Shown piece by piece: positions 17,480 through 40,060 of a stretch of 64,000 bases of DNA; the first letter of the stretch is position 1, and each line of letters starts with the position of its first letter. The notes under the pieces were generated by a model. The model made no database searches, was not told where the DNA came from, and was given only the letters and a program-made list of their open reading frames with translations. Both the position numbers and the translations under genes were made by a program. The stretch comes from an uncultured Gemmatimonadaceae bacterium. GTDB taxonomy: Bacteria; Gemmatimonadota; Gemmatimonadetes; Gemmatimonadales; Gemmatimonadaceae. The stretch spans positions 1,440,001 to 1,504,000 of the forward strand of contig CAWFQK010000004.1 of the NCBI GenBank assembly GCA_963817955.1, read 5' to 3'.

Positions 17480-17603
17480 GATGCCCTACGTCGTCGCCGC
17501 CTACGCGGTCACCTGGGTGGTGATCCTCGGATACGCTGGATACCTGGCGGCGCGCACGCGCCAGGCGAAGCGGCTGGCCGGCCATCATTCCAACGGGGGC
17601 TGA
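17472..17603 (+). CDS. ccmD: Heme exporter protein CcmD (43 aa)
   Basis: MSEMPYVVAAYAVTWVVILGYAGYL plus basic tail, GGAGG RBS, between ccmC and ccmE. Confidence 0.82.
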   Translation: MSEMPYVVAAYAVTWVVILGYAGYLAARTRQAKRLAGHHSNGG

Positions 17604-17606
17604 GCC

Positions 17607-21206: not shown

Positions 21207-21212
21207 GCATGC

Positions 21213-21507: not shown

Positions 21508-22962
21508 ATGTCACGCCGTATTACTCGAGTCGCGCAATTCGGCGCACTCCTCGCTGCGTCGGTCGCGATCGCCGCATGCGTGAATGACAATGTGGTATAT
21601 CGCGACCGGGCGCTGACCGTATCGGCACCACCCGCGGGGGCTGGCTTCGTCGGCTACACCGACACGGCGACCAAGCAGACCGCCTGTGGCAATTGTCACG
21701 TCGAGCAGCAAGCGAAGTGGGCGACCACGAAGCACGCCAGCGCGTGGGCAGACCTGCAGGCCAGCGGCCATTCGAGCAGTGCCTGCGAATCTTGCCATGC
21801 AGTGAGTAACCTGGGCAATGGAGTCGCCGACTCGAACGTCGCGTACGCCGCCACGAAGGACACTCGGTATACCGACGTTCAGTGCGAGAACTGCCACGGT
21901 CCTGGCCAGCAACACGTATCGACTCCGGCTATCACAAACCGGCCGCTCGCGTCGATCCAGGTGGACACGGGGACGAAGGACATCAACGGCTGCGGCCAGT
22001 GCCACACTGGTACGCACGAGCCGTTCGTGGACGAATGGAAGCAGACGTTCGCGCAGGGACACGCGCACCTCGAAGCGCACGCGCTCACGAGCACCGATCC
22101 CACGTGCGTGACCTGTCACACCGGTCAGGGCGCGCTCCTCAAGTTCAACGTCAACACTGCGTATAAGGAGAAGGATCAGATCACGACGAACCCGGTGGCG
22201 ATCACCTGCGCCGTGTGTCACGATCCGCACGCAGCGACAGTCGGCAAACAGCTGCGCTTCGCCATTGACACTCCCGATCCGACGCGGAATCTGTGCATGC
22301 AGTGCCACAATCGCGATTCGGGCCCGAATCCAACCTCATCGCGTGGACCGATGACTCCGGAGACGGCGACGTTGCTCGGTACCGCCGGCTGGTGGCCGCC
22401 GAACCTCACGCTTGTCGACACGTCCGCCATTCTCGCGACGCACGGCTCGAGCTCGAACACCAGATTGTGCGCTACGTGCCACGTGGTCAGAACTGCGGTC
22501 AACGATCCGAAGACTGGCAGCTTCGTATTCCAGGCGACCGGACACAACTTTGCCGCAATTCCCTGCTTGGACGCGAACGGCAAGCCGACGACTGGTGACT
22601 GTGCCATCTCCCAGCGAACCTTCACGGCGTGTGCCGGCAGCGGTTGCCATGCATCGGACGTCGTCGGCCGGTCGCTGTATATCACCGACAGCCTACGCAT
22701 CGCGGCGCTCGAGACGACGCTGAGCGGCCAACTGGGCAAGGCTCCGGCGAGTTCGCTTAACTACACGAGCACCACGCTCACAACGGCTAAGGGTGCGACA
22801 TGGAATCTGCAGGTCGCACAGAAACCAGGCGCATGGATCCACAATCCATTCCTGATTGAGGCGCTCCTCACGGCCTCGATCAAGCAGATGACGCTGGACT
22901 ACGGGATCGCACCGAGCACCAGCATCTCACTCGACAACATTCTGCGTCGGCGGATTCGGTAA
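21508..22962 (+). CDS. Lipoprotein multiheme cytochrome c (8 CxxCH + 1 CX4CH)
   Basis: Lipobox IAAC. Motifs CGNCH, CESCH, CENCH, CGQCH, CVTCH, CAVCH, CMQCH, CATCH and CAGSGCH. C-terminal helical region with WIHNP. ATG 21508 after GGAGA. Confidence 0.92.
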   Translation: MSRRITRVAQFGALLAASVAIAACVNDNVVYRDRALTVSAPPAGAGFVGYTDTATKQTACGNCHVEQQAKWATTKHASAWADLQASGHSSSACESCHAVSNLGNGVADSNVAYAATKDTRYTDVQCENCHGPGQQHVSTPAITNRPLASIQVDTGTKDINGCGQCHTGTHEPFVDEWKQTFAQGHAHLEAHALTSTDPTCVTCHTGQGALLKFNVNTAYKEKDQITTNPVAITCAVCHDPHAATVGKQLRFAIDTPDPTRNLCMQCHNRDSGPNPTSSRGPMTPETATLLGTAGWWPPNLTLVDTSAILATHGSSSNTRLCATCHVVRTAVNDPKTGSFVFQATGHNFAAIPCLDANGKPTTGDCAISQRTFTACAGSGCHASDVVGRSLYITDSLRIAALETTLSGQLGKAPASSLNYTSTTLTTAKGATWNLQVAQKPGAWIHNPFLIEALLTASIKQMTLDYGIAPSTSISLDNILRRRIR

Positions 22963-22992
22963 CCGACGGGCGGTAGGTTGGATCAGCACGGG

Positions 22993-23037
22993 ACGTACGC
23001 GGGCCGGAGGTTACCAAACCTTCGGCCCGTGGTACGT
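22993..23037 (+). terminator. Strong hairpin after the lipoprotein cytochrome gene
   Basis: GCGGGCCGGAGGTT-ACCA-AACCTTCGGCCCGT (two G-U pairs), extended by ACGTAC/GTACGT. No U-tract, so it may be an mRNA-stabilising stem. Confidence 0.45.
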
Positions 23038-23350
23038 AGAGGACCGTTGGATGGCATACGCCGTTCGCGACAACCCCAGCCCGTGTGTGTCCGTCCGATG
23101 CCGATGGCCACCGTCCGTGATCCCGCACACGCCGCACAGAGTTCTCCGATGACGTCGCGCACCCACACGGTGTTATGTACATCTGCGAATATGGCGGGCG
23201 CTACTCTGGCGCCCACGCGCGACGGTCCCGCAGCCATTACAAGGCGACCGCCATCAGCGCGTTCCCTTTGCACCTGGCGGTCAGGTGATCGTGACACGAT
23301 ATATTGCGCGGGCACGCTCGATAGGCGCTGATCTTTGGGCCGCCTCGGCG

Positions 23351-24718
23351 ATGCTGGCATTCATCTTCGCGCTGCTCGCGGCGGCCGCGCCATTGTGGGC
23401 GCAGGGGCCGCGGCTGGTAGCATCACGCGGCGGCGTGCAGTGCCAGAAGTGCCACGCCAACCATGAGTTTCTGGTGGGCAAAGCAAGAACGGAGCGAGGC
23501 GACTCGGCGCTGTATGTGCCAGACACGCTCCTGCGCGACTCGCGCCATGCAAAACTCAGTTGCGCCGACTGCCACCCTGGCTATGACAAAGGGTATCCGC
23601 ACAACGCGACTGTCGTGGCCGTGCCCTGTCAAAGCTGCCACGAGAAGGAAGGCCTGGCATGGGCACGCTCGATCCATGCGCCGAACGCCAAGACTGTCGG
23701 CGACGCTCCGACGTGCGTGAGTTGCCACACGCAGCACCACGTGCTCGGCGTCGAGGACCCTCGCTCGCCCACGTACGCGCTGAACGTGGCCAAGACGTGC
23801 GGAAAGTGCCACAGTGACCGCCGAATCATCGGCACGTACTTCACGAAGGCGAAGGATGCGCAGGCGCGAACGGCAGTGGCGGAGTACTACAAGACGGTTC
23901 ATGGCATAGCGAGCACCAAGTCCGGCCTGGTGGTATCTGCGACGTGCAACGACTGTCATGACGCACATCTCATCCTTCCGCCCGATTCGTCCGAGTCCAC
24001 CATCAATCGCGCGCACGTGGCGGCAACGTGCGGCGCGTGCCACGCCGGTGTGCTCGCAACCTTCGACTCGTCTTCGCATGGGCGGGCGTTCGCCTCGGGC
24101 AAGAAGACCAACACCGGTCACGCGGCGCCGGTGTGCATCGACTGCCACGCTGGACACAAGATCGTGGCCGCTCGCGACTCGGTGTGGTTTCGGGGCGTAG
24201 TGGCCGAGTGCGGCTCATGTCACGAACGACTGACCAAGACTTACTTCGAGACATACCACGGCCAGGTGACTGAGCTTGGCTTTGGGCTCACGGCCAAGTG
24301 CAGTGATTGCCATACCGCGCACTCAATGCTCCCACCCACCGATCCACGGTCGTCGGTGAACGCGGCCAACCTCGTAGCGACGTGCAGCAAGTGCCACGCG
24401 GGCGCGAATGCCAAGTTCGTGCAGTACATGCCGCACGGCGATCCACAGAATCGCGCGAAGAACCCCGGGCTGTTCTGGGTCTGGTTGTTCATGACGTCGC
24501 TCCTGGTGGGAGTATTCTCGTTCTTCGGCCTCCACACATTCCTGTGGCTGATGCGCCTGACATTGGATCGGCTGCACGGGGGCGGTGCGGCCAAGCCTCC
24601 GGTAGCAGAGCCCGTGACGGAGAGTGGTGAGGAGCATGCCGGTGTTCGCGCACCAGAAACAACAATCGCCGGCACGAGGCGCGAGCCTATCGGGCCCGGA
24701 ACTCGGGAGAAGCAATGA
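23351..24718 (+). CDS. 11-heme periplasmic cytochrome c with C-terminal TM (CbcL-like c domain)
   Basis: Signal peptide APLWA-Q, 11 CxxCH, end CSKCHAGANAKFVQYMPH...FMTSLLVGVFSFFGLHTFLW resembles the CbcL junction. Start may be GTG 23285. Confidence 0.9.
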   Translation: MLAFIFALLAAAAPLWAQGPRLVASRGGVQCQKCHANHEFLVGKARTERGDSALYVPDTLLRDSRHAKLSCADCHPGYDKGYPHNATVVAVPCQSCHEKEGLAWARSIHAPNAKTVGDAPTCVSCHTQHHVLGVEDPRSPTYALNVAKTCGKCHSDRRIIGTYFTKAKDAQARTAVAEYYKTVHGIASTKSGLVVSATCNDCHDAHLILPPDSSESTINRAHVAATCGACHAGVLATFDSSSHGRAFASGKKTNTGHAAPVCIDCHAGHKIVAARDSVWFRGVVAECGSCHERLTKTYFETYHGQVTELGFGLTAKCSDCHTAHSMLPPTDPRSSVNAANLVATCSKCHAGANAKFVQYMPHGDPQNRAKNPGLFWVWLFMTSLLVGVFSFFGLHTFLWLMRLTLDRLHGGGAAKPPVAEPVTESGEEHAGVRAPETTIAGTRREPIGPGTREKQ

Positions 24719-25626
24719 GCAACGAGCCGTTCGTTACGGCGGCGACGGCGATTCCCGTCTCCGTGAGAGGTACCGAGGCCAAACCACTGGCTGTATCCGA
24801 CCAGGGCGCTGGGCCGTACATCCGCCGCTTCGGAGCGGTGGAGCGTACGACGCATGCGCTCGTGATGGTCTCGTTCTTCGGCCTCGTAATCACGGGCGTG
24901 CCCCTGCGCTTCGCATCTGCGCCCTGGGCCGTACCGCTCATGCAGTTCCTGGGGGGCGCAGCCGCAGCAGCGGTTCTGCACCGGTTTTGCGCCGTGATCA
25001 CGTTCGGTTACTTCGGGCTGCATCTGGGCATGGTCGTCAAGAATTTCATGCGCGCCGAGAGCAAGTTGTCGATCTTCTGGGGCCCTCGCTCAATGGTGCC
25101 GCAGCCGAAGGACATTCGAGACGTCATCGGCATGTTCCGCTGGTTCATCCGCGGCGGAGTCCGTCCGAAGTTCGACCGCTACAGTTACATGGAAAAGTTC
25201 GACTATTGGGCCGTGTTCTGGGGTGTCGGAATCATCGGCGGTTCAGGCCTGCTGCTCTGGTTCCCGACATTCTTCTCGCATGTTCTGCCCGGGTGGGCGT
25301 TCAACGTTGCGACGATCGTTCACGGCGACGAAGCACTGCTCGCGCTTGGCTTCATCTTCACGATCCATTTCTTCAACGTTCACTTCCGACCCGAGAAATT
25401 CCCGATCGACCTGGTGATCTTTACCGGCCGCGCACGGGCGGAGTACTTCGAGGAAGAGCATCCGCTGGAATACGAGCGAGAACTGCACTCCGGCCGGTTG
25501 GCCGCATTGCAGACATCGGCCCCATCGCGATCGACGTACCTCTGGTCGATGGCGTTCGGATTCGCGGCCCTTGCGCTGGGCGTGTTCCTGGTTGGCCTGG
25601 TCATCTACGCAGTGTTGAGAGGATGA
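24715..25626 (+). CDS. Di-heme cytochrome b (FdnI/HydC-type; CbcL-like b domain)
   Basis: THALVMVSF, LHRFCA, YMEKFDYWAVFWG, IVHGDEALLALGFIFTIHFFNVHFRPEKFPID. Own RBS and ATGA overlap. Confidence 0.92.
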   Translation: MSNEPFVTAATAIPVSVRGTEAKPLAVSDQGAGPYIRRFGAVERTTHALVMVSFFGLVITGVPLRFASAPWAVPLMQFLGGAAAAAVLHRFCAVITFGYFGLHLGMVVKNFMRAESKLSIFWGPRSMVPQPKDIRDVIGMFRWFIRGGVRPKFDRYSYMEKFDYWAVFWGVGIIGGSGLLLWFPTFFSHVLPGWAFNVATIVHGDEALLALGFIFTIHFFNVHFRPEKFPIDLVIFTGRARAEYFEEEHPLEYERELHSGRLAALQTSAPSRSTYLWSMAFGFAALALGVFLVGLVIYAVLRG

Positions 25627-27095
25627 ACGCGTTTCGGCGCGGCGTAGCCGGCGGCCTGTTCGTCAGGCTCGCCCGCGCCGTTGCCGTCGGCTTGCTCGTT
25701 GGCATCAGCGGAAGCGCACTCACGAGCTGTTCTTCCAGCGCGCCGCCGCCTCGAGCGACGCGCGACACCACGGCGCATGTCGCAGTGTTGCAGGGCAGCG
25801 ACCGGGACGCGCCCACGCGTGTGCTGAGCACCGAATGTACGGATTGCCATCCGCATACGCATGACGCCGTGCTCGGCCGCGGCCCGTCAGCATCAGCACG
25901 GTGTGGCGCGTGCCACGCGTCCGTCCACGACACGATCCAGGCGCTGTACGCTGGCCTGACGCGCCGCGCCGCAGTGCGGCCCGATCCCATGTTCGTGGCG
26001 CGCGTTCAGTGCGCCGAGTGCCATTCTGATACGACGCTGGCCATGCGTGCCGGCGCCGCGCGACTGGCAGCCGTCGATCGCGCGTGTACGAGCTGTCACG
26101 GCCCCAAGTTCGTGGGCATGCTCCCGCGATGGAGCACGGGAATGCAGTGGCGTACCCGCGCCGTATCGGAATACGTGAATCGTGCTGCGGCCGACCCGCG
26201 GCTCACCACGGCCCCATCTGCCCGCGCACGCATCCAGGCTGCGAAACAGACAGTGATCCTGGTGACGACCGCCGGCGCTCTGCACAACGTGCGCGGTGCC
26301 GATGCCCTGCTCCGTAGCGCACTCGATAGCGCAGCGGCCGCGTACACCGGCCCCGGCCTGGCCGTGCCGGAGCGTCCGACGCTCGGTCCCGATCCCGCAC
26401 GCGTCTCGTGTGTCGGGTGCCACTATGGCATAGAGGGCGCTCGCGATTCTGTGTTCGGTCAGCCCTTCGATCACAGTGCGCATGTGTTGCGTGGCAACGT
26501 GGCATGCAATGCATGCCATAGCGCTGTCGACTATATCGTGCCCGGCAAGCACGAGGTGGACAAACGACACGGCAGGACGATGGTCACGCCTGCGTCGTGC
26601 AACGCATGCCACCACAATGCGACGTCCGCCGTGGCGTGCAGCACGTGTCACGCGGGCGATGCGCGGCTCGCACGCGCAATCCGCGTGGCAATGCCGCTGC
26701 GCCTCCGCCCGCCGAACGCGCCGACGTCTCGCGACGTGGCGTTCGAGCATCGTGACCATGCGAAGGTAGAGTGCGCGAGCTGCCATACCGCGCGCACGGC
26801 GGTGCGCACCACCGCGGCGTGCGCGACCTGTCATCAGACCCATCATGTCGCGGTAGCGCAGTGCATGAAGTGCCATGGGTCGGACATGCACGCGGCGCAC
26901 AAGGCTGCGGACCACCTGGCGTGCACCAATTGCCACGCCCGCGAGACCCTGGCACTGCTCACCCCCGACCGCAGCTTCTGCGTGAGCTGCCACGCGGATC
27001 GCGCCGCACACAAGGGCGGCCGCGAGTGCTCGGCGTGTCACATGCAAAGCACGCCGTCAGAGCTGCGCAAGAGAATTCTCAGCGGAACGCGCTGA
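25623..27095 (+). CDS. Lipoprotein 14-heme cytochrome c
   Basis: ATG 25623 overlaps the cytochrome b stop. Lipobox LTSC, 14 CxxCH, internal helical segment with GALHN. Confidence 0.92.
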   Translation: MNAFRRGVAGGLFVRLARAVAVGLLVGISGSALTSCSSSAPPPRATRDTTAHVAVLQGSDRDAPTRVLSTECTDCHPHTHDAVLGRGPSASARCGACHASVHDTIQALYAGLTRRAAVRPDPMFVARVQCAECHSDTTLAMRAGAARLAAVDRACTSCHGPKFVGMLPRWSTGMQWRTRAVSEYVNRAAADPRLTTAPSARARIQAAKQTVILVTTAGALHNVRGADALLRSALDSAAAAYTGPGLAVPERPTLGPDPARVSCVGCHYGIEGARDSVFGQPFDHSAHVLRGNVACNACHSAVDYIVPGKHEVDKRHGRTMVTPASCNACHHNATSAVACSTCHAGDARLARAIRVAMPLRLRPPNAPTSRDVAFEHRDHAKVECASCHTARTAVRTTAACATCHQTHHVAVAQCMKCHGSDMHAAHKAADHLACTNCHARETLALLTPDRSFCVSCHADRAAHKGGRECSACHMQSTPSELRKRILSGTR

Positions 27096-27105
27096 TCGCG
27101 GGCAC

Positions 27106-28899
27106 ATGGGACTATTCTCCAAGGATCTCGTTCTCCTGCATCCGCCGTCAGTCTACGACTTCCGGCGGAACGGCACGTTGTTCGGCCCAATCAGCGACGT
27201 CATTCCATCCACGCCGGTGTTCGAGATGTATCCGATGGGTTTCACCACCATCGCCGCGCATCTCGAGAACGCGGGCTTCAACGTGGAGATCGTCAACATC
27301 GCGTACCGGATGTTGTCGGACGCCACATACGACGCCGAAGCTGCGATTGCCGCCTTGCATCCGCGCATCTTCGGCATTGATCTCCACTGGCTGCCGCACG
27401 CGCATGGCGCGCTGGAACTGGCGCGCATCGTCAAGAAGCACCACCCTGGGACGCCCGTCGTCATGGGCGGCCTGTCCGCGTCGTACTTCCACGAGGAGCT
27501 CGTCCGGTATCCCTGGGTCGATTACGTACTGCGCGGCGACTCGACTGAGGAGCCGATCCTCCAGCTGATGCAGGCGCTGCAAAGCGGCGACCCACCGACG
27601 GCGGTGCCGAACCTCACGTGGATCGACGCGCGCGGAGAGGTGGTGGTGAACCCGCTCACCCACGTGCCGGACGACATCGACGACATCGCCATCCCGAATT
27701 ACCGGTACGCGATTCGGTCGGTCTTCAAGTACGCGAGTCTGGCGAACGTCATTCCCTTCGTCGATTGGATGAGCTATCCGATAACCGGGCTCCTGACGTC
27801 GCGAGGGTGTTCGTTGGACTGCTCCATCTGTGGCGGGTCGCGGAGCGCGTACCGCACCATGTGCAACCGCCGGCGGCCGGCATTCCGCTCGCCGGAAGCC
27901 CTGATCCGCGACATCCGGCAGATCCGGGAATTCAGCGACGCGCCGATCATCCTGCTGAACGATATCCGCCATGGCGGCCGGGCCTATAGCGAACGTTTCC
28001 TCGATTTGCTGGAGCGCGAGCGCGCGCCGAACGAGATCATCTTCGAGTTGTTCTGGCCGGCGGACGACGCGTTCTTCGAGCGTGTCGCCCGAGCGTCGCC
28101 GCGGTTCAGCCTCGAGATGACGCCGGAGAGTCCAGACGAGGGGCTGCGACGCATCAACGGCAAGTTTGCGTGCACGAACGCGGAGATCGAGGACACCGTG
28201 GCGGCTGCGCTTCGCCATGGCGTGAATCGGATTGACATCTTCTTCATGGTCGGTATCCCCCGCCAGACCTATCTGCAGGCGGTCGGCGCCGTCGACTACT
28301 GCCGCGAGCTACTCGAGAAGTTCGCCGGTGACCACCGCCTGGCATTCTTCGTAGCTCCTCTCGGCCCGTTCCTCGATCCGGCGAGCCGGGCATTCGAGCA
28401 TCCAGAACAGTTCGGCTATCGACTCATTCACCGCACGCTCGAAGAGCATAGACGCGCGCTCACATCGCCGAGCTGGAAATACCTGCTGAACTATGAGATG
28501 GAGACGATGAGCCGTGACGACATCGTGGATGCGACGTACGAGTCGGCGCTACGGCTTGCTCGGCTCAAGCGCGACTACGGCTATATGGACGACGCCACGT
28601 GCGCCGAGCTCTCGGCGCGCATCGAGGCATCGCGCCACGCAATCGCCGAGGTGGACTGCATTCTCGCTCTGCCAGAAGGCGAGAACCGCGAGGATCGCCT
28701 CGCAGCCGTGCGCGCACGTTTCGCGGACTTGCCCGCGCAGACGGTGGCCGTGAAGCAGGAGCTCTTGCGCTGGCCAACCCCCGGGGGGTTCGCCAGCTCG
28801 GTGCGGCTGGCGCAGCTGGGCGCGCGGCTCATGCGCACAGAAGTCTATCTGTTCTCGAAGCGTGTGCGGCGGCTGTGGGCCGCACACGCCGATCCGTGA
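27106..28899 (+). CDS. Cobalamin-binding radical SAM protein (TIGR04190/Ta0216-like from recall)
   Basis: N-terminus DLVLLHPPSVYDFR...FEMYPMG, B12-domain GIDLHWLPHAHG / VMGGLSAS, CxxxCxxC in RGCSLDCSIC. Confidence 0.88.
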   Translation: MGLFSKDLVLLHPPSVYDFRRNGTLFGPISDVIPSTPVFEMYPMGFTTIAAHLENAGFNVEIVNIAYRMLSDATYDAEAAIAALHPRIFGIDLHWLPHAHGALELARIVKKHHPGTPVVMGGLSASYFHEELVRYPWVDYVLRGDSTEEPILQLMQALQSGDPPTAVPNLTWIDARGEVVVNPLTHVPDDIDDIAIPNYRYAIRSVFKYASLANVIPFVDWMSYPITGLLTSRGCSLDCSICGGSRSAYRTMCNRRRPAFRSPEALIRDIRQIREFSDAPIILLNDIRHGGRAYSERFLDLLERERAPNEIIFELFWPADDAFFERVARASPRFSLEMTPESPDEGLRRINGKFACTNAEIEDTVAAALRHGVNRIDIFFMVGIPRQTYLQAVGAVDYCRELLEKFAGDHRLAFFVAPLGPFLDPASRAFEHPEQFGYRLIHRTLEEHRRALTSPSWKYLLNYEMETMSRDDIVDATYESALRLARLKRDYGYMDDATCAELSARIEASRHAIAEVDCILALPEGENREDRLAAVRARFADLPAQTVAVKQELLRWPTPGGFASSVRLAQLGARLMRTEVYLFSKRVRRLWAAHADP

Positions 28900-28903
28900 A
28901 CCT

Positions 28904-30916
28904 CTAACCTCCTACATGCGCCACCACTGCCGCCTTTGCGTTCCCCATCGGCGGCACTTTGTGGCACGACTCGCACGCACGACCAGGCTTGTGGTTCGTC
29001 TGCGCTACGTGGCACGTCGTGCACACCTGCCGCGACCAGTGATCCACGGCTGGCACTGACTTGTGACACTGAACGCACGCGACGTGATCGGTCGCCTTGT
29101 GCTTTGCCAGTGAGCCGCCACGATGACAGCTGAGGCATGCCGCCTGGGGCTGGTGGTGCTGCGCATGGCAGTTGTCGCAGTTCAGCGCACGCGCGCTCAT
29201 GGCCGGCGCCGTGTGGCACGCGCTGCATGCGACCTTGGCGGCGAGATGGGAGGCGTGCGTGAAGTCACCAGCGGGCGCGTGCAGCGTGTCGACCGGAACG
29301 CCCCCTGGGCCGGCATGGCACTGCGCACAGTTGCGCGCCTGCGCCTGCACGGACGGATGGTGGCACGCGTCGCAACTCGCCGCTGACTTGATCGTCGTGC
29401 CGCCGTGATCGGCGAATGACGTGTGACAGCCACTGCACTGGAGCCCGGCACGCAACACATGCTGCGAGTGATCGAACGACCGGCCGTCCAAGATGCCGCG
29501 CTGCTGCTCCACGCCCATGTGGCACTGCAGACATTCGTTATCGCTCACCGGCGGCCCCAGATTCACCACCGGCATGCGATACGACAGGTGCGTGTCGTCC
29601 GCCGCTTGGCGCACGAGCTCGAGCGAGCTCCGCAGCAACCCGTCGGCGTAGCTGATATTGTGCACGCCTTTGCCCGCGCGCACGAGCGCAATGTTCTCCG
29701 CCGCCATTCCGAGCAGGCTGTCGGCGACGGCGCGCTGGTTCAACGGCAACGCCACCGCCGCAGCGCGCGCTTGCTGCATGACAGGCTCCACCAGATTCAG
29801 CTTCCGATCCATCGCGCGCTGCCAGCTCGGAAGCATGTTTGCGTAGCGGACGCCGTGGCAAGACAGACAGGCGGACTCGTTCGCGACCTGCACCGTGCCG
29901 TGACCGGGCTTTCGAGACGCGTCGTTGTGGCATCCCACGCAGGAGACGCGGGCCTTGTACATCGAGCTCGGCCCCTTCTGCGTGAGATGTCCGCCGGTCC
30001 CGGCGTAGAGCTTCTGCTGCGCGACATGCGTGTTCTGATGGCAGCTCTTGCAGTCCAGCTCCACCGTGGTCGAGACGGAAATGATCCGGTGATCGATCCC
30101 GGTGTGGCATTGGACACACGCGATGTTCTCCTGCCCCACGTGCACTTTGTGCAGCATGGGCGAGTCCGTGATGCGCGCCAGTCGAGCGGGTTCGTTGTGG
30201 CAGGTGACACACCGGGCCGCATCCACGTTACCGGTGCCCTGGGTGACTTCGTTGTGGCATGACAGGCAGTCGATCCGATCCTTGACGTACTGCGGATGAT
30301 CGACGACGAAGCCCTCTTTGGAGTTGACCCGCGGCGGCGCGGGATGGCAGCCGGTGCAGGTGGCAAGCGGCTGGCCGTTGGGACGCCCCTTGAAGTGGCA
30401 GAGGACACAGGTGTTCTCGGTGACGGCAATGTGCGAGCCCTGCACGATCTGCGAGTGACAACTGGTGCAGTGCAGCTCAATGCCGCGACGCACCTGCCCG
30501 AGGTGACGTGTATGGTCAAAGCGTACTCCTTTGTAATCCACCTGCCCCTCGATGAGCCGCGTCGAGTGGCAGCCCGAACGGAGGCACGCCGCGTCATCCA
30601 TCTTCGCCCAGGGGCGAGTGTTGGCAGTACCAGTGAAGTACTTCACCACCATGTTCGCGGCCTGCACCTTGGTCATCGCCTCGGCTTTGATGCCCGGGGC
30701 GATGTGGCACTTGATACAGGCCACATCGCGATGCGTCGACTTCGTCCACGAGTCATGGTACGGCTTCATGATGTGGCAGCTACCGCAGAACCACGGTTGG
30801 CTGGACACCTGAACGAACGCGGTTGTGCTGACAGCAAGCAGGATGATGCCGAGGATGACTACAGGAACCGCGATGCGCGCAGCTCGCGACACCCGCCTAC
30901 GGGCTGTGGGCGACAT
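28904..30916 (-). CDS. Membrane-anchored 22-heme cytochrome c with NapC/NrfH-like N-terminus
   Basis: N-terminal TM, first motif CGSCHIM (CxxCHxM), 21 CxxCH plus CLRSGCH, internal GKGVHN helical segment. Confidence 0.92.
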   Translation of the reverse strand: MSPTARRRVSRAARIAVPVVILGIILLAVSTTAFVQVSSQPWFCGSCHIMKPYHDSWTKSTHRDVACIKCHIAPGIKAEAMTKVQAANMVVKYFTGTANTRPWAKMDDAACLRSGCHSTRLIEGQVDYKGVRFDHTRHLGQVRRGIELHCTSCHSQIVQGSHIAVTENTCVLCHFKGRPNGQPLATCTGCHPAPPRVNSKEGFVVDHPQYVKDRIDCLSCHNEVTQGTGNVDAARCVTCHNEPARLARITDSPMLHKVHVGQENIACVQCHTGIDHRIISVSTTVELDCKSCHQNTHVAQQKLYAGTGGHLTQKGPSSMYKARVSCVGCHNDASRKPGHGTVQVANESACLSCHGVRYANMLPSWQRAMDRKLNLVEPVMQQARAAAVALPLNQRAVADSLLGMAAENIALVRAGKGVHNISYADGLLRSSLELVRQAADDTHLSYRMPVVNLGPPVSDNECLQCHMGVEQQRGILDGRSFDHSQHVLRAGLQCSGCHTSFADHGGTTIKSAASCDACHHPSVQAQARNCAQCHAGPGGVPVDTLHAPAGDFTHASHLAAKVACSACHTAPAMSARALNCDNCHAQHHQPQAACLSCHRGGSLAKHKATDHVACVQCHKSVPAVDHWSRQVCTTCHVAQTNHKPGRACESCHKVPPMGNAKAAVVAHVGG

Positions 30917-30919
30917 CGG

Positions 30920-32218
30920 TTATGGCTCCTCGTTCCCGGCGCCGCGGCGAAGCGCTCGCAGCGTGAGCCACGCCAGCGCGACCGCCGCCAACGAGAGGAA
31001 CCATACGGGGAGCAGCAGCAGCTTGTGCTCCAACAGCACCTCCTCGCTTGCGGCCGACATGCGATCGAGCTCGATCGATGCCGCGCTCACGCGACTCTCC
31101 TGGTTCTCAACGCGCTCGAGATCGAGCCCGTGCTGCACCTGTGCGATCTGTAGGTAGTCAGTGAGTGCCGACTGGTAACGGAAGCGCGCGTCGCTCGTGC
31201 GCTGCCCCGAAACCGCAAGACGGTCCACGGCGCGCTCGGCCGACCGCAGGTCCGAGGTCGCCTGCATCATGCGACGCTGCAGGTCTACACCGACCTGGTG
31301 TAGCTTCGTGTCGCGAGCGTGGCACCGGTCGCACATCGCGGAGATGCTGTCGTCAGCAATACGCTGCGTGCCGTGGTTCCCGTGGCACGCCAGGCACCCT
31401 TGGATCCGCCCCGCGCGCGTGGCGGGCCCGTGCGGCCCAGCATTGAATGCCTGTGCCACGAGCTGGTGGCAACTGCCGCAGACGCTCGACACCTCGGTGC
31501 GCGTGGGCGGCAGCGCCGAATGCGCACCGTGGCAAGCTACGCACGTTGGGGCGGCAAAGTCCCGCTTCTCGAACAATGTCTTGCCGTGCGCGCTGTTGCG
31601 GAACTGGTCGAGCTGGTCGGTACGCAAGTTGTACTTCTGCATCAGCCGCGTGTTGGCATGGCAGTGCCCGCACGTGGTTGGGATGTTGGTCGGATACACG
31701 CGACTGCGCGCATCGTACGGCGGATAGATGATGTGCGTGCCATGACAATCGGTGCACGTTGGTGCATCGACGTTGTTCCCCGCGAACAGAAGCTGCCCGT
31801 GGCGGCTGGTGCGGAACTCCGCGAGCTGGCCGGTGGGCAACCCATACTCGCGCATCCTATTTGGATCAGAGTGGCATGAGCCGCACAGCCGTGCAACAGC
31901 TACCTTGTTCAGCGCGCCGGTGAAGCCGTTGCCGTGCGCCGCGGGAAGGAGGCGTGCAGAAGGATCGCCGCCGTGGCAGTCGACACAGCGCACGCCGTGC
32001 TCAGAGTGCACGCCGACGTCGGCGGCCTCCCGTTGGGCCGCGTGACAGACCAGGCAATTATTGCCCGCGTTCGCCTCGGGCGTCTGCCAAACCGTAGTCG
32101 GTGCCGGGACCGCCGCCGCTGTGTGCATGGCCTGAGGCGCGGCTTGTGCCGGCACGAGGCTCGCGGCAAGCACGAGAGCGGTAGCGCCAAGGAGGCGAGT
32201 GATCGTGGCGCGCATCAT
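30920..32218 (-). CDS. 9-heme cytochrome c with C-terminal membrane anchor
   Basis: ATG 32218 overlaps the cytochrome b stop. Signal peptide, 9 CxxCH, coiled coil and C-terminal TM. Confidence 0.92.
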   Translation of the reverse strand: MMRATITRLLGATALVLAASLVPAQAAPQAMHTAAAVPAPTTVWQTPEANAGNNCLVCHAAQREAADVGVHSEHGVRCVDCHGGDPSARLLPAAHGNGFTGALNKVAVARLCGSCHSDPNRMREYGLPTGQLAEFRTSRHGQLLFAGNNVDAPTCTDCHGTHIIYPPYDARSRVYPTNIPTTCGHCHANTRLMQKYNLRTDQLDQFRNSAHGKTLFEKRDFAAPTCVACHGAHSALPPTRTEVSSVCGSCHQLVAQAFNAGPHGPATRAGRIQGCLACHGNHGTQRIADDSISAMCDRCHARDTKLHQVGVDLQRRMMQATSDLRSAERAVDRLAVSGQRTSDARFRYQSALTDYLQIAQVQHGLDLERVENQESRVSAASIELDRMSAASEEVLLEHKLLLLPVWFLSLAAVALAWLTLRALRRGAGNEEP

Positions 32219-33450: not shown

Positions 33451-33451
33451 G

Positions 33452-33922
33452 TCAGGGCCTCCCTACGTAGACGGCGCCATCGCGCACGAACGTGGAGTAA
33501 CGCTTCAGCGGCACCGTCGTGAGCCCGCGTACCACGTTGCCGTGCAGATCGTAGACGAGGTAGCCGCAGGCGGAGGCTACGCGCATCGACGTGGCATCCC
33601 AGTGCAAGATGCAGCCGTCGTTCGGCGCCGTGCCCTGGAGCGCCGTGTAGGTGGTCGAGTCCGCGCGAACCACAAGAATCACCTGGTCCCCCCAGCGAAC
33701 AATGCGGCTGCTTCCTACGGGCAGGCTCGTCTCAGGTGCCACGCGGAACGCGGGCTGGAGTTCGGGGAGCTGGAGCTGTTCGGGCGGCAGCAGGTAGACG
33801 AAGACGGCGAGGAGCGCGCCCATCAACATGAGTGAGAGAACTCCGCCGAGCAGGTATTCACCAAAGCCCGGCGTCCATGTCCGGGACGCAGGGATCGGCT
33901 CGGTTGTGTCAGGCATCACCAC
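33452..33922 (-). CDS. Rieske-fold protein lacking [2Fe-2S] ligands
   Basis: TM anchor, then YTALQGTAPNDGCILHWD...VASACGYLVYDLHGNVVRG...PL, aligning without gaps to Rieske boxes CxHxGC and CPCHG. Directly upstream of cytochrome b. GGAGG RBS. Confidence 0.85.
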   Translation of the reverse strand: MVMPDTTEPIPASRTWTPGFGEYLLGGVLSLMLMGALLAVFVYLLPPEQLQLPELQPAFRVAPETSLPVGSSRIVRWGDQVILVVRADSTTYTALQGTAPNDGCILHWDATSMRVASACGYLVYDLHGNVVRGLTTVPLKRYSTFVRDGAVYVGRP

Positions 33923-34065
33923 TGGTCAGCCTCCGTTCTCGCTGATGTGCAACTGCGCTGCTTCCGCATAGCCAATCGTGCGATCGCTGGTGGTAGGTCG
34001 CTTGCGCGACGACATGACCAACCCGGCGACTGCTGTAACTCAGCGGTTTCCGGCCGCGTAGTCTG

Positions 34066-34124
34066 TCAGCGAAAACCAGAATCGCTGTCGGGAGTTAGCG
34101 TGCGGGTGGGAAGGCATGCTCCTA
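34066..34124. promoter_or_regulatory. Three 22-bp-phased putative regulator boxes upstream of the pseudo-Rieske operon
   Basis: TCAGC-GAAAA-CCAGA (34066), TCGGG half-site (34088), GAAGG-CATGC-TCCTA (34110). Confidence 0.5.
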
Positions 34125-34167
34125 CGTCATGCGCGAGAGCACATCCAACGGAAGATCATCGTGAGCG

Positions 34168-35751
34168 TTACTTCGAGAGCGGATCGGTGATGTGGCAGGT
34201 CAGGCACATGATCTTGTTACGGGCTGACATCCGACTCGCGTCGAAATTCTGTCCGTGCGGGTTCACCTTCAACCCGGTGCTTGCATGACAGCGCAGGCAA
34301 TCACGCTGCTGGTGACAGGTGGTGCAGCCGGTCATTCCTTGCCGCGCTGCTTGACCATGCTGTAGGAGCCAGAGCGGCTGCCCGGTGTGCACGGCACCTG
34401 TACGTGCTCCGCTCACGGTAATATTCGTCTTTTCATGGCACGAACGACAGAACGTCTCGGTGCGATGACAGGACGTACAGTTCTGGTCTTGCCCATACGC
34501 CACCGCCGCGTGCCGAGCAACGAAGTCGAGCGCATGATAGCGCTTGGAACCAGACCCCTCGTGACAGGTGGTACATTGGCGCTGCTCGTGACATCCCAGA
34601 CAGTCTAGCCGGCCGCTCGCTGCCGTCGACTTGTGCTGCGTCGCGAATCCCGCGGGATGCACTTTCGAGCCGGACCCCTCGTGACACGTCGCACATTGGC
34701 GCTGCTCGTGACATCCCAGGCAATCGACACGACCGCTCGCTGCCACCGACTTGTGCTGCATCGCGAATCCCAGAGGATGCGCCTTCACCAAAATCGTATC
34801 CCCGTGCGTCGCGCCGCGCGCGGGTAACCGAGCAAACGTCAGTCCGGTGTCAACACGCGCGACTCGCAACACGACACCCGGCGCCACTCCCGGCGCCGGC
34901 ATCGGAAGCCGTGCGATGACTGCGGCCGCGTTTGACCCTCTGTGACAGGACTGACAGCTCGGCTGCGTGTGGCAGTTGGCACAGCCCTCCGCTTGCTTTG
35001 ACGCAATGGTTCCGTGGTCGGCAGACCATGTCTCGCTCCGATGATTCACCGGGGTTGAATACGAGGCAGCTTTCCCCTTCATCAACTGAGCCACCCGCGA
35101 GTCGCTTCCCAACGCGCCGATCGCGGGAACGCGCGCCGCGTTCGGATGGCAGCGCGCGCAGCTCTCGCGAGCATGACACGTGGCGCAGCGCTCGACATCC
35201 GCGCTGGTTCGCGGCGCGTGCGCTGAGGCAAAATCCGCGCGTCCGTGCGATGTGGGTTTCGGGAAGGTCGCGATCGCGCTCGCGGGCAATGCGCGCGCCT
35301 CTGTTAGCGGGACATGGCACGTCTTGCATATCGCACTCTCTGCAAGATGTTCCGGTGCCTCATGGCAAGAGAGGCATACAGTGGGCGCTGCGCGCCGCAC
35401 CTGCATCCAACCCGCCTGCTTGTTTTCGGCATGACAACTCTGACACACTGCCGACGTTCCCTTCGCCTGGGGGTCCCGCGGATGCTCAACGTGTGCAAAC
35501 CGCAGGTTCGTCGGCTGCGGGGTGGCGCCCGACCATGTCGTGACCGCCACATCCCGGCCGTTATGGCACTGGGCGCACGTACTAGGCGCGGGCATCGCCG
35601 TGGTCGCGTCACCCGAGAGAATGCCCGCGTGGCACCCCGCGCAGTCCGGAAAGAGCTTCGCATGTTGCGCGTGCGGAAATCCCGATGACCGCTGCGCGTG
35701 CAAGGCCCCTGTCGACAGAAGCGCGATACCCAGCCAAGCGCCGATTCTCAT
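34168..35751 (-). CDS. 18-heme periplasmic cytochrome c (porin partner)
   Basis: Signal peptide ALHA-Q, 18 CxxCH, six paired CxxCH-x4/5-CxxCH modules. 4-bp overlap with the porin gene. Confidence 0.93.
   Translation of the reverse strand: MRIGAWLGIALLSTGALHAQRSSGFPHAQHAKLFPDCAGCHAGILSGDATTAMPAPSTCAQCHNGRDVAVTTWSGATPQPTNLRFAHVEHPRDPQAKGTSAVCQSCHAENKQAGWMQVRRAAPTVCLSCHEAPEHLAESAICKTCHVPLTEARALPASAIATFPKPTSHGRADFASAHAPRTSADVERCATCHARESCARCHPNAARVPAIGALGSDSRVAQLMKGKAASYSTPVNHRSETWSADHGTIASKQAEGCANCHTQPSCQSCHRGSNAAAVIARLPMPAPGVAPGVVLRVARVDTGLTFARLPARGATHGDTILVKAHPLGFAMQHKSVAASGRVDCLGCHEQRQCATCHEGSGSKVHPAGFATQHKSTAASGRLDCLGCHEQRQCTTCHEGSGSKRYHALDFVARHAAVAYGQDQNCTSCHRTETFCRSCHEKTNITVSGARTGAVHTGQPLWLLQHGQAARQGMTGCTTCHQQRDCLRCHASTGLKVNPHGQNFDASRMSARNKIMCLTCHITDPLSK
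34541..34780 (-). repeat. 120-bp intragenic tandem duplication (two-heme module)
   Basis: HPLGFAMQHKSVAASGRVDCLGCHEQRQCATCHEGSGSKV versus HPAGFATQHKSTAASGRLDCLGCHEQRQCTTCHEGSGSKR. The repeat is visible at DNA level with period 120. Confidence 0.93.
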
Positions 35752-37214
35752 TGGATCCTCAATGCGCCGGGGCTACCAAGCGTCCACTCGAGCCGCACCG
35801 TGCCGCGCCGTTGATTCCAATTCACTAACTGTGGCGCGTCGCTGCCTGTGTGATGATACAGCAGCATATCGGCTACGAGGCGCAAATCGGGGAACAGGCG
35901 CACCGCAGCCTCTCCGCCTCCACCGACCACCCGGCCCGAACCGATCTGGAATTCATAGATGTTCTGAAAGGCCAATCCGTGGAGTGCGAGCGACAGGCCA
36001 TCGCTTGGCGCCCAACGCAGCGCAACGTCTTCATCGCTGGTCGACGCGCCGAAATCGATATCGGCGTTGTAGCTCCCCTGGACCGACCATGCGTTGGACG
36101 CCCGGAAGGAGCCGGTTGCGCCAACGCGCCAGCCGCTCGCGCGGAGCGGCAGGAACGCGACGCCACTCTGCGTGTCATCGTACGACCGTCGCCCGCCCGA
36201 TGCACCCAGGCTCACGCGAGCATCGCTGCTCGCCCAATCCAGGTTGCCGGAGACTTCTTTGTAGCCCACGGGAGCAAATGCGCCCCAGATCGTCCAGAGA
36301 TCGAAGTAGGGCGCGTAATGGCGTGCCTCGATCCGCGCCGTCGCCGATCGCGGCAGCACGAAGCGGAGCGCCAGAGAGAGATCGTTGAAGGTGCCGGTCG
36401 CCAGGTCGCGCGTGAGCTCGCCCGACAACGTGCTCTTCCCGGCATGCAGTTCGCCATCGGCGGCGACCCGCTCGGAATAGAGTCCGGCGCGATCTCGACG
36501 GATCTCGCGTTGGTACTGCACGCGGAACGCGCCGAGTGCATTGGGACGAAGCTGCGCCGTTGCCCCGATCACGTACGCACCATCGGTCGGCGGAAGATCT
36601 TCGACTGGCGCGAGCACACTAGCGTCGAGCGGTCGATTGAGCCCAGACACGAGGGTGCCACCACCATACACTTCGGCAGATACGCTACTCATCGGCCGCA
36701 GGAGCACCGATCCACCATCGAAGTTGAAGACGCCGAGCGACGAGGTGATCCACTGGCGGCCAAGCCTCGCACGCGCTCGGGAGCGGTCCATCTCGATGTA
36801 GGCATCGAGCGCATCGAACGTCTGCGTCGCTTGTGGCCACAGGTCGCGCGCATCGCCCGCTGCTCCGCGCGCCCGCAGTTGCGCGTGCACGCTGATTCCC
36901 TCACCGAAGCCCCAGCCCGTGACGTCAAGATCCTGGGTCATGGCGACGAGGGCGTTCCTGGACGCTGACCGAAGGAACGTGCAGTACTGGTTCAGCGCAT
37001 CGCATCGCGCGAGTATGCCGGACGTCGTGCGGCGATATACGCCGTACGCCGAATCCGTCGATGCATAGGCAATGCTATCGAGCACGAGCGGCTGCAGCTC
37101 GATGTATTGAGCCGAGCTGGCCCCCCTGATGACGACGCCCTGCGCCGCCGCCCTGCTCGCCGTCACGGCAACGAGGGCGGCCGTGAGGGCGATTCCTGCA
37201 ATATGGCGCCTCAT
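35748..37214 (-). CDS. Putative outer-membrane beta-barrel porin of a porin-cytochrome pair
   Basis: Signal peptide, many amphipathic strands with aromatic girdle (RARLGRQWI, FRVQYQRE, WSVQGSY, TVRLEWTL). Translationally coupled to the 18-heme cytochrome. Confidence 0.78.
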   Translation of the reverse strand: MRRHIAGIALTAALVAVTASRAAAQGVVIRGASSAQYIELQPLVLDSIAYASTDSAYGVYRRTTSGILARCDALNQYCTFLRSASRNALVAMTQDLDVTGWGFGEGISVHAQLRARGAAGDARDLWPQATQTFDALDAYIEMDRSRARARLGRQWITSSLGVFNFDGGSVLLRPMSSVSAEVYGGGTLVSGLNRPLDASVLAPVEDLPPTDGAYVIGATAQLRPNALGAFRVQYQREIRRDRAGLYSERVAADGELHAGKSTLSGELTRDLATGTFNDLSLALRFVLPRSATARIEARHYAPYFDLWTIWGAFAPVGYKEVSGNLDWASSDARVSLGASGGRRSYDDTQSGVAFLPLRASGWRVGATGSFRASNAWSVQGSYNADIDFGASTSDEDVALRWAPSDGLSLALHGLAFQNIYEFQIGSGRVVGGGGEAAVRLFPDLRLVADMLLYHHTGSDAPQLVNWNQRRGTVRLEWTLGSPGALRIQ

Positions 37215-38710: not shown

Positions 38711-38867
38711 CGGCAGTGTCCGAAAACATGCCTTCGCAAATCAGTCTTATGCGTCTACTGGGCGGTGCCCATCGCAACAATTGTACACGGCACGCGTGAA
38801 CGCCGTAGCCAGCCTCGCACACCCTTTAGGTGGTGCGGCAATCCACGCCCAGTCAGGAGTCCGTTCC

Positions 38868-40058: not shown

Positions 40059-40060
40059 CC

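Follow-up and report, generated by a model that had tools for sequence, protein, structure and literature searches.

Why does an uncultured Gemmatimonadaceae bacterium carry six genes for multiheme c-type cytochromes together with a gene for an outer-membrane beta-barrel, and what might these proteins do in concert? The genes are located between positions 21508 and 37214 of a stretch of 64,000 nt from contig CAWFQK010000004.1, in the following called the window. From the letters and open reading frames (ORFs) alone, a sequence-only reading had proposed a complete conduit for extracellular electron transfer (EET). Our analysis gives a related but narrower answer: the locus probably encodes a trans-envelope porin-cytochrome conduit of a Gemmatimonadota-specific type, in which electrons would flow outward from quinol. 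As judged from homology and gene order, the conserved part of this putative conduit is a four-gene core, comprised of a nine-heme lipoprotein cytochrome (c9lipo), a long cytochrome of 17-24 hemes with a NapC/NirT-type head (c22 in the window), the barrel, and a cytochrome of 16-18 hemes (c18).

The window has a G+C content of about 64%, and genes were therefore chosen by length, codon-position G+C and family matches. The six multiheme ORFs contain 81 CxxCH and two CxxxxCH motifs, that is, 83 heme sites by motif count, exactly as the sequence-only reading had counted them. Of the 89 CxxCH motifs in the six reading frames of the window taken together, 81 fall into these ORFs, far above chance. 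The CxxCK motif, which marks the catalytic heme of NrfA, is absent from all six cytochromes in a motif scan. The two b-type cytochromes, the barrel, the adjoining cytochrome c maturation (ccm) operon and the H2-uptake hydrogenase of that reading were all recovered by family matches or structure prediction, together with a Rieske-fold gene that it had missed; its claim that every layer of the envelope is represented holds in silico.

The conserved core and its barrel-cytochrome pair

The core genes of the window, and a duplication within one of them, are the following:

21508..22962 (open frame 21493-22962), plus strand: c9lipo, a lipoprotein cytochrome with eight CxxCH and one CxxxxCH motif, OcwA/NrfA-like
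28904..30916, minus strand: c22, a cytochrome with 21 CxxCH and one CxxxxCH motif, an N-terminal transmembrane helix, a NapC/NirT/NrfH-like head and a putative long heme wire
34168..35751, minus strand: c18, a cytochrome with 18 hemes and a Sec signal, predicted to be periplasmic
34553..34771, no strand: a 120-bp tandem duplication inside the c18 gene (TRF)
35748..37214, minus strand: the predicted outer-membrane beta-barrel (488 aa) of an unannotated Gemmatimonadota family, the putative porin component

Conservation was assessed by one scan of species-representative genomes with an alignment of the barrel, which yielded 412 stretches encoding a relative; all synteny and neighbour counts rest on the best 80 of these. 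The titles of the 80 loci name Gemmatimonad* taxa in 74 cases and Longimicrobiales in one, and five read only 'bacterium'. Counts were obtained by tblastn of the window proteins against these loci, since a strict GC3-based ORF filter under-recovered genes: it retrieved the barrel in 63 of the 80 loci and c18 in 35, and was dropped for synteny. Full 10-kb flanks are present in 36 loci; counts for c18 refer to loci with at least 1.5 kb downstream of the barrel, counts for c22/c14-like genes to loci with at least 2 kb upstream.

The pairing of barrel and c18 is invariant. A c18 homolog follows immediately downstream of the barrel in 70 of 70 loci, and the stop codon of the barrel overlaps the start codon of c18 by 4 nt in the window as well as in 19 of 65 loci. 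Next in conservation among the partners of the barrel comes c9lipo, which 57 of 65 loci have on the barrel's strand within 5 kb upstream; a c22/c14-like gene is located immediately upstream of the barrel in 55 of 69. This synteny of the core spans loci whose barrels are 38-61% identical to the barrel of the window. The arrangement that characterises porin-cytochrome systems, a barrel gene adjoining the gene of a periplasmic multiheme cytochrome, is thus present. We note that at least two metagenome-assembled genomes (MAGs) harbor two barrel-c18 loci each (L020 and L027, and L012 and L049, respectively), and the module can therefore exist as paralogous copies.

The barrel itself belongs to no Pfam or NCBIfam family (Pfam at E<=0.01). 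Its homologs number 275 at E<=1e-3 among 8000 candidates scored; none of the 120 listed contains a Pfam domain, and the seven with NCBI names are all a 'hypothetical protein' from Gemmatimonadota or Gemmatimonadaceae MAGs. An exhaustive profile-free search gave 300 cluster representatives at E<=1e-3, and the ESM Atlas returned only unnamed Gemmatimonadota clusters, the nearest named entries being generic barrels at 0.92. When the barrel alignment was used for a profile search of the PDB, Porin D was the sole match, at E 0.099 or worse. The AlphaFold model, built from a 37-sequence alignment, is all-beta with about 22 strands of at least 10 residues (mean pLDDT 81.1, pTM 0.69), and the PDB matches listed by Foldseek are all beta-barrel proteins of the outer membrane or cell envelope: FimD/PapC ushers, which have a large lumen (TMq 0.44-0.47), TonB-dependent receptors, AlgE and porins. 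MtrB (6r2q_B) is found at rank 12 (E 1.5e-7, TMq 0.43), a generic fold match. The most conserved peptide of the barrel family is an invariant LWTIWGAF loop (302-318).

Like the barrel, c18 has a signal-peptide-like N-terminus. Its N-terminal part resembles the 16-heme cytochrome HmcA (1h29, E 3.1e-11), and 16 is also the number of motifs in 60 of the 65 c18 homologs from loci with complete barrel and c18 ORFs. The 18 motifs of the window protein are explained by the tandem duplication (period 120, 1.8 copies, 87% matches), which adds two heme motifs.

For the complex of the two proteins, mature barrel (26-488) and mature c18 (21-527) were predicted together in three runs, alongside three controls. 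With hemes left out, the pair reached ipSAE values of 0.77, 0.73 and 0.72 (median 0.73), the best control 0.00. The mark applied is reached by 116 of 157 solved complexes and by 2 of 215 mismatched pairs, counts that hold only roughly here because our own alignments served as input. The three runs share at least 80% of their contacts, with a pLDDT of at least 71 for the partner. Predicted contacts connect residues 366-519 of c18, its C-terminal third, with barrel residues spread from 30 to 470, as expected if the c18 chain were threaded through the barrel lumen. The contacts of lowest predicted error join the LWTIWGAF loop to the conserved c18 segment 466-474, including the invariant A468, A469 and R470. 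The sequence-only reading had let its proposal depend on a barrel that binds a cytochrome; the model supports such binding without showing it.

The third member of the core, c9lipo, has a lipobox-like N-terminus, as does the cytochrome c14 described below. The cysteine that follows the hydrophobic N-terminus is invariant in 45 of 45 aligned homologs, and the eight CxxCH motifs and one CxxxxCH motif are kept in 53 of 57 complete homologs. With 2312 proteins at E<=1e-5 out of 8000 candidates, this is a large family, and the named relatives among the 120 listed bear generic names only. A c554/NrfA-type domain (PF13435) is matched with 26.6 bits, and among solved structures the sequence is nearest to 6i5b_A (E 5.9e-7 over about 85 residues), the nine-heme cytochrome OcwA. 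A model built from 45 sequences (pLDDT 78.1, pTM 0.77) ends in long C-terminal helices (384-465). Only three PDB entries match this model at E<=1e-3, namely 6qvm_A, the S-layer undecaheme cytochrome of Carboxydothermus ferrireducens, and OcwA (6i5b_A/B), with TM scores of 0.39-0.42. The match to OcwA (E 4.9e-6, TM score 0.42, 19% identity) is distant and leaves heme packing out of account. OcwA is described as an NrfA/c554/MccA-like terminal reductase of the cell surface with nine hemes and a C-terminal three-helix bundle (PMC6703420). We therefore regard c9lipo as a candidate for the outermost, terminal cytochrome, which would be exposed at the surface.

Two further features of the c9lipo family bear on this role. 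An aspartate or glutamate is present at positions +2 to +5 from the lipidated cysteine in 45 of 45 homologs (consensus C-[VT]-[DS]-E-K). By analogy, this acidic stretch resembles the export signal of Bacteroidetes surface lipoproteins, in which a polar or positive residue is followed by two acidic ones (PMC5080379), and may serve as a weak lead. Secondly, seven histidines outside the heme motifs are invariant or nearly so, for nine hemes; some hemes may therefore have an open or non-histidine coordination.

Candidate quinone modules at the inner membrane

The fourth member of the core, c22, begins with a hydrophobic segment (8-40), immediately followed by heme motifs. This is the layout of NapC/NirT/NrfH proteins, in which an N-terminal transmembrane helix directly precedes the heme domain. 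The NapC/NirT family PF03264 is matched by residues 17-103 (37.7 bits, cutoff 24.1), and NrfH of known structure (2j7a_C) at E 1.9e-5; the NrfH equivalog TIGR03153 scores 50.2 bits, below its cutoff of 134.2, so that membership holds at the level of the domain only. The design recurs among the loci: 41 of 42 upstream c22-like proteins, which mostly have 17-18 hemes, contain a hydrophobic segment ahead of their first heme, and the NapC/NirT model is matched by five of six upstream homologs from other clades, three of them above the cutoff, as well as by the homolog of locus L009. From its domain composition, c22 is a candidate quinol dehydrogenase and periplasmic wire in one chain.

Between and beside the core genes, the window contains the following further genes:

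23285..24718, plus strand: c11, a cytochrome with 11 hemes, an N-terminal signal or anchor and a C-terminal transmembrane helix; paralog of c9
24715..25626, plus strand: an FdnI/cytochrome b561-like b-type membrane cytochrome, a putative accessory quinone interface
25623..27095, plus strand: c14, a cytochrome with 14 hemes and a lipobox-like N-terminus (...ALTSC); paralog of the C-terminal ~400 aa of c22
27106..28899, plus strand: a B12-binding radical-SAM protein (TIGR04190)
30920..32218 (open frame 30920-32326), minus strand: c9, a cytochrome with nine hemes, a signal peptide and a C-terminal transmembrane helix
32215..33450, minus strand: a bc/b6-type cytochrome b with a subunit-IV-like half, a second putative accessory quinone interface
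33452..33922, minus strand: a Rieske-fold membrane subunit lacking the four [2Fe-2S] ligands (b6f iron-sulfur subunit, 27.8 bits)

The genes are tightly packed on both strands. The minus-strand genes run from the barrel through c18, the Rieske-like subunit, cytochrome b and c9 to c22. A gap of 246 nt between c18 and the Rieske-like gene is the sole real gap of this block; the start of c9 overlaps the stop of cytochrome b by 4 nt (ATGA), as is the case for c18 and the barrel, and only 1 nt separates the Rieske-like gene from cytochrome b and 3 nt separate c9 from c22. The likely start of c9 is Met37 of its open frame. On the plus strand, c9lipo is followed after 323 nt by c11, the b561-like gene, c14 and the radical-SAM gene, with 4-nt overlaps between c11 and b561 and between b561 and c14 (c14 ATG at 25623), and with the radical-SAM gene 10 nt past c14. 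Scans of 21000-39000 for promoters (2 promoter-like sites, 2.6 expected) and for terminators (14 sites, 9.2 +/- 3.6 expected) were uninformative, and neither an Rfam scan at gathering thresholds nor a tRNA scan of the window gave a match.

The radical-SAM ORF had been considered as a possible barrel and was ruled out by its family score (TIGR04190, 682.9 bits, cutoff 500). The protein is probably outside the conduit. Its gene converges on c22, and a homolog is found near the barrel in one of the 80 loci only (L009, beside c14).

The remaining genes form a recognisable pattern. The last ~400 residues of c22 are 33% identical to c14 (E 1e-57), and c11 is 28% identical to c9 (E 3e-23); both c9 and c11 have an N-terminal signal and a C-terminal hydrophobic helix (segments 12-42 and 394-424 in c11). 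This paralogy indicates that the window encodes two inner-membrane modules of parallel design. As far as domain content tells, each consists of a b-type membrane protein, an anchored cytochrome with 9 or 11 hemes, and a long cytochrome with 14 or 22. The b561-like protein (303 aa) matches PF01292 with 31.9 bits (cutoff 30.1) and the gamma subunit of formate dehydrogenase (TIGR01583) with 36.4 bits, below the cutoff. Homologs of the b561-type cytochrome occur in 6 and of the bc-type cytochrome b in 11 of the 80 loci. On this distribution the two b-type modules are accessory to the putative conduit. The sequence-only reading had taken the whole cluster as one conduit; this stands for the four-gene core and does not for the b-type modules, one of which moreover has a degenerate quinol-oxidation (Qo) site.

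In this bc-type module, c9 is the cytochrome c subunit. The cytochrome b matches PF00033 with 170.5 bits and cytochrome b6 (7r0w_I) with 187.7 bits; its b6-like half is well conserved, and both histidine pairs for hemes bL and bH are aligned. The PEWY motif is replaced by ATWF(V) in the window and by STWLV in L009, and reads PEWYF in all nine cytochrome b homologs from other loci. The Rieske-fold subunit does not match the Pfam Rieske model: compared with the canonical proteins of L061, L075 and L077, the four ligand positions (CxH...CxxH) are occupied by A, N, S and G, with the two other cysteines kept. The L009 protein likewise lacks all four ligands, as do, again with the other two cysteines kept, 120 of 120 Rieske-fold homologs (the best 120 of 154 at E<=1e-3 among 274 candidates). 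In the window and in L009 (13151-14831), this ligand-less subfamily is paired with a PEWY-less cytochrome b. Some databases label such proteins 'ubiquinol-cytochrome c reductase iron-sulfur subunit', a label which, going by the ligand positions, is probably a misnomer in this clade.

A canonical Q-cycle bc complex is rejected for the clade on account of the lost Rieske ligands and the lost PEWY. The module may use the b hemes and the quinone-reduction (Qi) side only, or a heme of c9 may replace the cluster as the first acceptor. A literature search for a described precedent of a cluster-less bc-type complex found none. As a separate observation, two loci (L022, 14682-16190; L029, 13882-15390) encode a cytochrome b with a C-terminal CxxCH extension, a fused monoheme cytochrome c-like tail that is missing from the window protein.

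The whole gene set of the window is present in L009, where ccmF, ccmH, c9lipo, barrel, c18, Rieske-like subunit, cytochrome b, c9 and c22 follow each other on one strand, and a radical-SAM gene and c14 lie on the other strand after c22. Relative to this order, the block from c9lipo to the hydrogenase side is inverted in the window, c9lipo itself excluded. The inverted block, c11 to barrel, corresponds to 22962-37500 in the window and 9900-21383 in L009, where c9lipo is located 91 nt upstream of the barrel. A search for inverted repeats at the ends of the block was negative; the longest repeat pairs reflect the c14/c22 paralogy and heme-motif codons.

Proposed electron path, neighbouring genes and competing explanations

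The reading we favour, an outward conduit, may be put together as follows. At the inner membrane, quinol would be oxidised by c22, by way of its membrane-anchored NapC/NirT-like head and ~18 further hemes, with the adjacent hydrogenase loading the quinone pool from H2 via its own cytochrome b. Two accessory feeds would contribute in this genome, one consisting of c11, the b561-type cytochrome and c14, the other of the Rieske-like subunit, cytochrome b and c9. Electrons would cross the periplasm along the heme wires of c22 (and c14) to c18, whose C-terminal third would reside inside the 488-aa barrel, and would leave via c9lipo at the surface to an extracellular or surface-bound acceptor, such as Fe(III) or Mn(IV) oxides or humics. 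The direction of electron flow cannot be read from the sequence.

On both sides of the cluster the window contains genes that bear on this path:

15278..21143, plus strand: ccmA, ccmB, ccmC, ccmE, ccmF, a thioredoxin-like ccmG candidate and ccmH (System I)
37538-38005: an LTXXQ (Spy/CpxP-like) periplasmic protein, between the barrel and the following ORF
38148..38600 (start approximate), minus strand: a small lipoprotein-like ORF (lipobox-like ...GLLAC) with a weak TPR match
38781..42549 (internal starts approximate), plus strand: the small, large and cytochrome b subunits of a [NiFe]-hydrogenase

The ccm genes, recognised by matches to ABC_tran, CcmB, Cytochrom_C_asm, CcmE, CcmF_C, AhpC-TSA/Redoxin and CcmH, serve heme attachment and are context to the conduit; 30 of the 80 loci include ccmF, as do 16 of the 36 that have full flanks. 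The hydrogenase has the composition of a membrane-bound uptake [NiFe]-hydrogenase: a small subunit with a twin-arginine motif (RRDFLEF, of the form RRxFL; TIGR00391, 444.7 bits, cutoff 179.5), a large subunit (PF00374, 782 bits) and a cytochrome b subunit (TIGR02125, 174.2 bits, cutoff 121.5), followed by hyp maturation genes up to 48828. A homolog of the TPR-like lipoprotein ORF (TPR_11, 20.5 bits, below the cutoff) is located beside the barrel-c18 pair in 42 of the 80 loci; this lipoprotein and the LTXXQ protein could be assembly or stress factors for the conduit. Recurrent neighbour families without a name of their own comprise CcmE, CcmH, Rieske, a zinc-ribbon protein, a sigma-54 activator, USP/CBS proteins and similar.

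Further away, two regions (4223-4702 and 48960-56218) harbor genes of the stress or low-oxygen type, encoding HSP20, two tandem-USP proteins, a triple-BON protein, a CBS pair, acetate kinase, a pyridoxamine-oxidase-like protein and a PAS-GAF histidine kinase. Their placement around the respiratory genes suggests a hypoxia-response or low-oxygen island. The window also contains a V/A-type ATPase operon upstream of ccm (6184-13995, minus strand; subunits D, A/B, C/AC39, E and I by Pfam). A 380-aa ORF (5052-6194) scores 26.2 bits against baeRF_family10, below the cutoff of 27.1, and an 833-aa ORF (60320-62821) with a weak MFS-like region and a spermidine-synthase-like domain adjoins an MFS transporter gene (59072-60310).

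Several observations weigh against the outward conduit or parts of it. To our knowledge, cultured Gemmatimonadota are aerobes, and members of this common soil phylum are regarded as aerobic heterotrophs. The large subunit of the hydrogenase is found within the locus in 22 of the 80 loci (16 of the 36 with full flanks); H2 as the donor, put forward by the sequence-only reading, is therefore suggestive only. Folds and complex were predicted without hemes, and the score of the barrel-c18 pair may mirror a likeness to MtrAB, whose complex is solved (6R2Q), rather than binding by this pair. The bc-type module has no canonical Qo site. In the window, the residues C-V-N-D-N at the lipidation site of c9lipo include one acidic residue only. 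The next fold matches of c9lipo after OcwA are NrfA nitrite reductases (weak, E 0.06-0.6), and OcwA itself also reduces nitrite and hydroxylamine (PMC6703420), so that c9lipo might instead be a periplasmic enzyme acting on a soluble substrate.

One competing explanation retains every component and reverses the flow: electrons from Fe(II), Mn(II), minerals or a partner cell would enter the quinone pool or periplasmic acceptors, as has been proposed for MtoAB/PioAB and PCC3/PCC4. Quinone interfaces of the NapC/NirT type and of the b type are reversible in principle, and a bc-type cytochrome b with both b hemes and no Qo machinery could hand electrons of periplasmic hemes on to quinone at its Qi site. 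Porin-cytochrome systems serve both directions, and PCC3 and PCC4 have been proposed for metal oxidisers (PMC5566968). In structure, c9lipo comes closest to terminal reductases of iron reducers, and the neighbouring genes encode an H2-uptake hydrogenase, acetate kinase and stress proteins rather than enzymes of carbon fixation or oxidases; both points speak for export without being decisive. We consider the inward direction unlikely.

Of similarly low probability is a periplasmic network for a soluble substrate, for example a nitrogen or sulfur oxyanion, in which c9lipo would be an enzyme of the NrfA/OcwA family, the barrel an ordinary porin or substrate channel, and the long cytochromes electron stores. 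Lipoproteins face the periplasm by default, and the fold family of c9lipo includes, with weak E-values of 0.06-0.8, NrfA, octaheme nitrite reductase and HAO; the seven candidate distal histidines for nine hemes and the activities of OcwA (PMC6703420) also fit an enzyme. The barrel-c18 pairing without exception argues against this explanation, as does the predicted interface, in which the last third of c18 is buried against residues from almost the entire length of the barrel chain; a plain diffusion porin would have no need of it. So do the missing CxxCK motif and the acidic residues after the lipidated cysteine in all aligned homologs, with their likeness to the Bacteroidetes signal (PMC5080379).

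The sequence-only reading had stated that the window contains no catalytic terminal reductase. No molybdoenzyme or other recognised terminal reductase is among the recurrent neighbour families of the 80 loci either, in a census that is indicative, not complete, because the strict ORF filter missed genes; a soluble terminal reductase that might explain the cluster thus does not recur among the best 80 of the 412 stretches. Taken literally, the statement is too strong, since c9lipo groups structurally with OcwA and NrfA, and OcwA is a terminal reductase (PMC6703420).

That the ccm genes, cytochromes, bc-type complex and hydrogenase are independent modules which merely share a low-oxygen island, as the other stress and anaerobiosis genes of the window, the scarcity of b561 and bc homologs among the loci and the inversion relative to L009 might suggest, is improbable in view of a core that stays syntenic across widely diverged barrels, genes that overlap or are spaced by 1-10 nt within each strand block, and the predicted binding of barrel and c18.

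Beyond the outward conduit in this genome, we tentatively raise a broader possibility that may well prove wrong: that the core represents a phylum-wide, unannotated class of conduits, consisting of an OcwA/NrfA-type lipoprotein, whose family is known from Gram-positive iron reducers, and a new barrel family, for anoxic respiration of minerals or humics with H2 or organics, which in one clade is fed by a bc-type quinol:multiheme-cytochrome oxidoreductase without Rieske cluster, PEWY glutamate or bifurcating Qo site. If so, a widespread phylum of soils and sediments would gain anaerobic mineral or humic respiration, possibly driven by H2, and the OcwA-type surface reductases of Gram-positive bacteria would be tied to a diderm porin-cytochrome system. 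The combination of a ligand-less Rieske fold and a PEWY-less cytochrome b could inform the debate on quinol oxidation at the Qo site. Because the barrel has no Pfam or NCBIfam family and the cytochromes are annotated generically, current marker sets would miss the system; the barrel motif LWTIWG[AV]F together with the fixed gene order provides a simple handle for metagenome searches.

Comparison with known systems

By proposed function, the system would work like MtrCAB with CymA: the tasks would be divided alike among an inner-membrane quinol dehydrogenase of the NapC/NirT type, a periplasmic multiheme cytochrome predicted (here) to sit in an outer-membrane barrel, and an outermost lipoprotein cytochrome. 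By score it is outside the Mtr families, and the claim of the sequence-only reading that the architecture is not MtrCAB is borne out. The DmsE/MtrA model (TIGR03508, cutoff 192.2) gives 17.9 bits for c18, 46.3 for c9lipo, 53.9 for c11, 47.3 for c22 and 40.4 for c9; the OmcA/MtrC model (TIGR03507, cutoff 209.3) gives 27.6 bits for c9lipo and 29.9 for c22. The barrel does not fall into the MtrB/PioB family either, having no Pfam family and only Porin D as a PDB profile match. Unlike in MtrCAB, the cytochrome in the barrel would have 16-18 hemes, the quinol dehydrogenase is fused to a putative long heme wire, the lipoprotein is OcwA/NrfA-like rather than MtrC-like, and the barrel has ~22 long strands.

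With OcwA of Thermincola potens (6I5B), c9lipo shares the number of nine heme motifs and a C-terminal part modelled as heme-free helices, described as a three-helix bundle in OcwA. The relationship to OcwA and 6QVM is distant (19-20% identity), and one motif of c9lipo is CxxxxCH. Whereas OcwA and the S-layer undecaheme cytochrome of Carboxydothermus ferrireducens belong to Gram-positive cell walls, c9lipo is a diderm lipoprotein encoded beside a barrel.

The candidate porin-cytochrome clusters PCC3 and PCC4 likewise unite a porin, multiheme cytochromes of the periplasm and the cell exterior with a great number of hemes, and an inner-membrane protein of the b type. In PCC4, the porin is described as accompanied by three periplasmic cytochromes, with 4, 5 and 10 hemes, and as lacking an extracellular one; PCC3 is described with porins of up to 42 strands and a ~300-aa membrane protein of five helices with two WX3HX13H motifs (PMC5566968). 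By these descriptions the window is set apart from PCC4, its cytochromes having 9, 11, 14, 22, 9 and 18 hemes, and from PCC3, since the b561-like protein contains a single H-x13-H (H89/H103) and a single H-x14-H but lacks W-x3-H. The cytochromes of PCC3 have 22-39 aa per heme and were read by He et al. as conductive 'molecular wires' (PMC5566968); c18 (29.3 aa per heme) and c22 (30.5) are inside this range. The hosts named for PCC3 and PCC4 belong for the most part to Proteobacteria, plus Planctomycetes, and the string 'Gemmatimon' does not occur in the main text of that paper (PMC5566968).

Among inner-membrane systems, the Ext families are not reached: the ExtP model gives 223.1 bits for the cytochrome b (cutoff 290), no better than generic cytochrome b6 (221 bits), and the best scores for ExtM, ExtS and ExtQ are 24.0, 15.6 and 19.4 bits, against cutoffs of 800, 100 and 150, respectively. 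The CbcL-type design combines a multiheme c domain with an FdnI/HydC-like b-type domain. The pair of c11 and the b561-like protein resembles a split version of it, compared by design rather than by sequence. With Rieske/cytochrome b complexes of the bc1/b6f type, the bc-type module shares the b6-like cytochrome b, a membrane-anchored Rieske-fold subunit, an anchored c-type subunit and the organisation in one operon; unlike b6f, its cytochrome b has, by alignment, no counterpart of the cysteine of cytochrome b6 that binds heme ci. Multiheme acceptors for Rieske/cytochrome b complexes have been proposed earlier (PMC5317091).

With regard to the phylum, the sequence-only reading had held that the likely host lineage is not known for EET. 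A literature search on Gemmatimonadota with porin-cytochrome, multiheme or EET found no characterised EET and no characterisation of this system, and in this respect the statement stands. A survey of 2018 lists one CbcL-type and two ImcH homologs in Gemmatimonadetes (PMC6295460), and the accessible parts of other literature on Gemmatimonadota MAGs contain only generic mentions of Cyc2-like genes or of multiheme proteins and their counts. The statement needs amending in one respect: a cave-metagenome survey of 2026 figured porin-cytochrome (PCC) systems in the MAG SAW209, containing petB and petC, the genes for cytochrome b and Fe-S subunits (PMC13264449), and SAW209 is a member of the Gemmatimonadota, family GWC2-71-9 (PMC13264449, supplementary table S3). 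By description, the arrangement in SAW209 probably corresponds to that of loci L057, L059, L061 and L075-L078. It is a sighting in one MAG, and the accessible text of the survey contains no barrel family, OcwA-like lipoprotein, phylum-wide synteny or ligand-less Rieske subunit. The porin-cytochrome principle is thus known; what is new is the probable conduit across Gemmatimonadota built from an unannotated barrel family and an OcwA-type lipoprotein.

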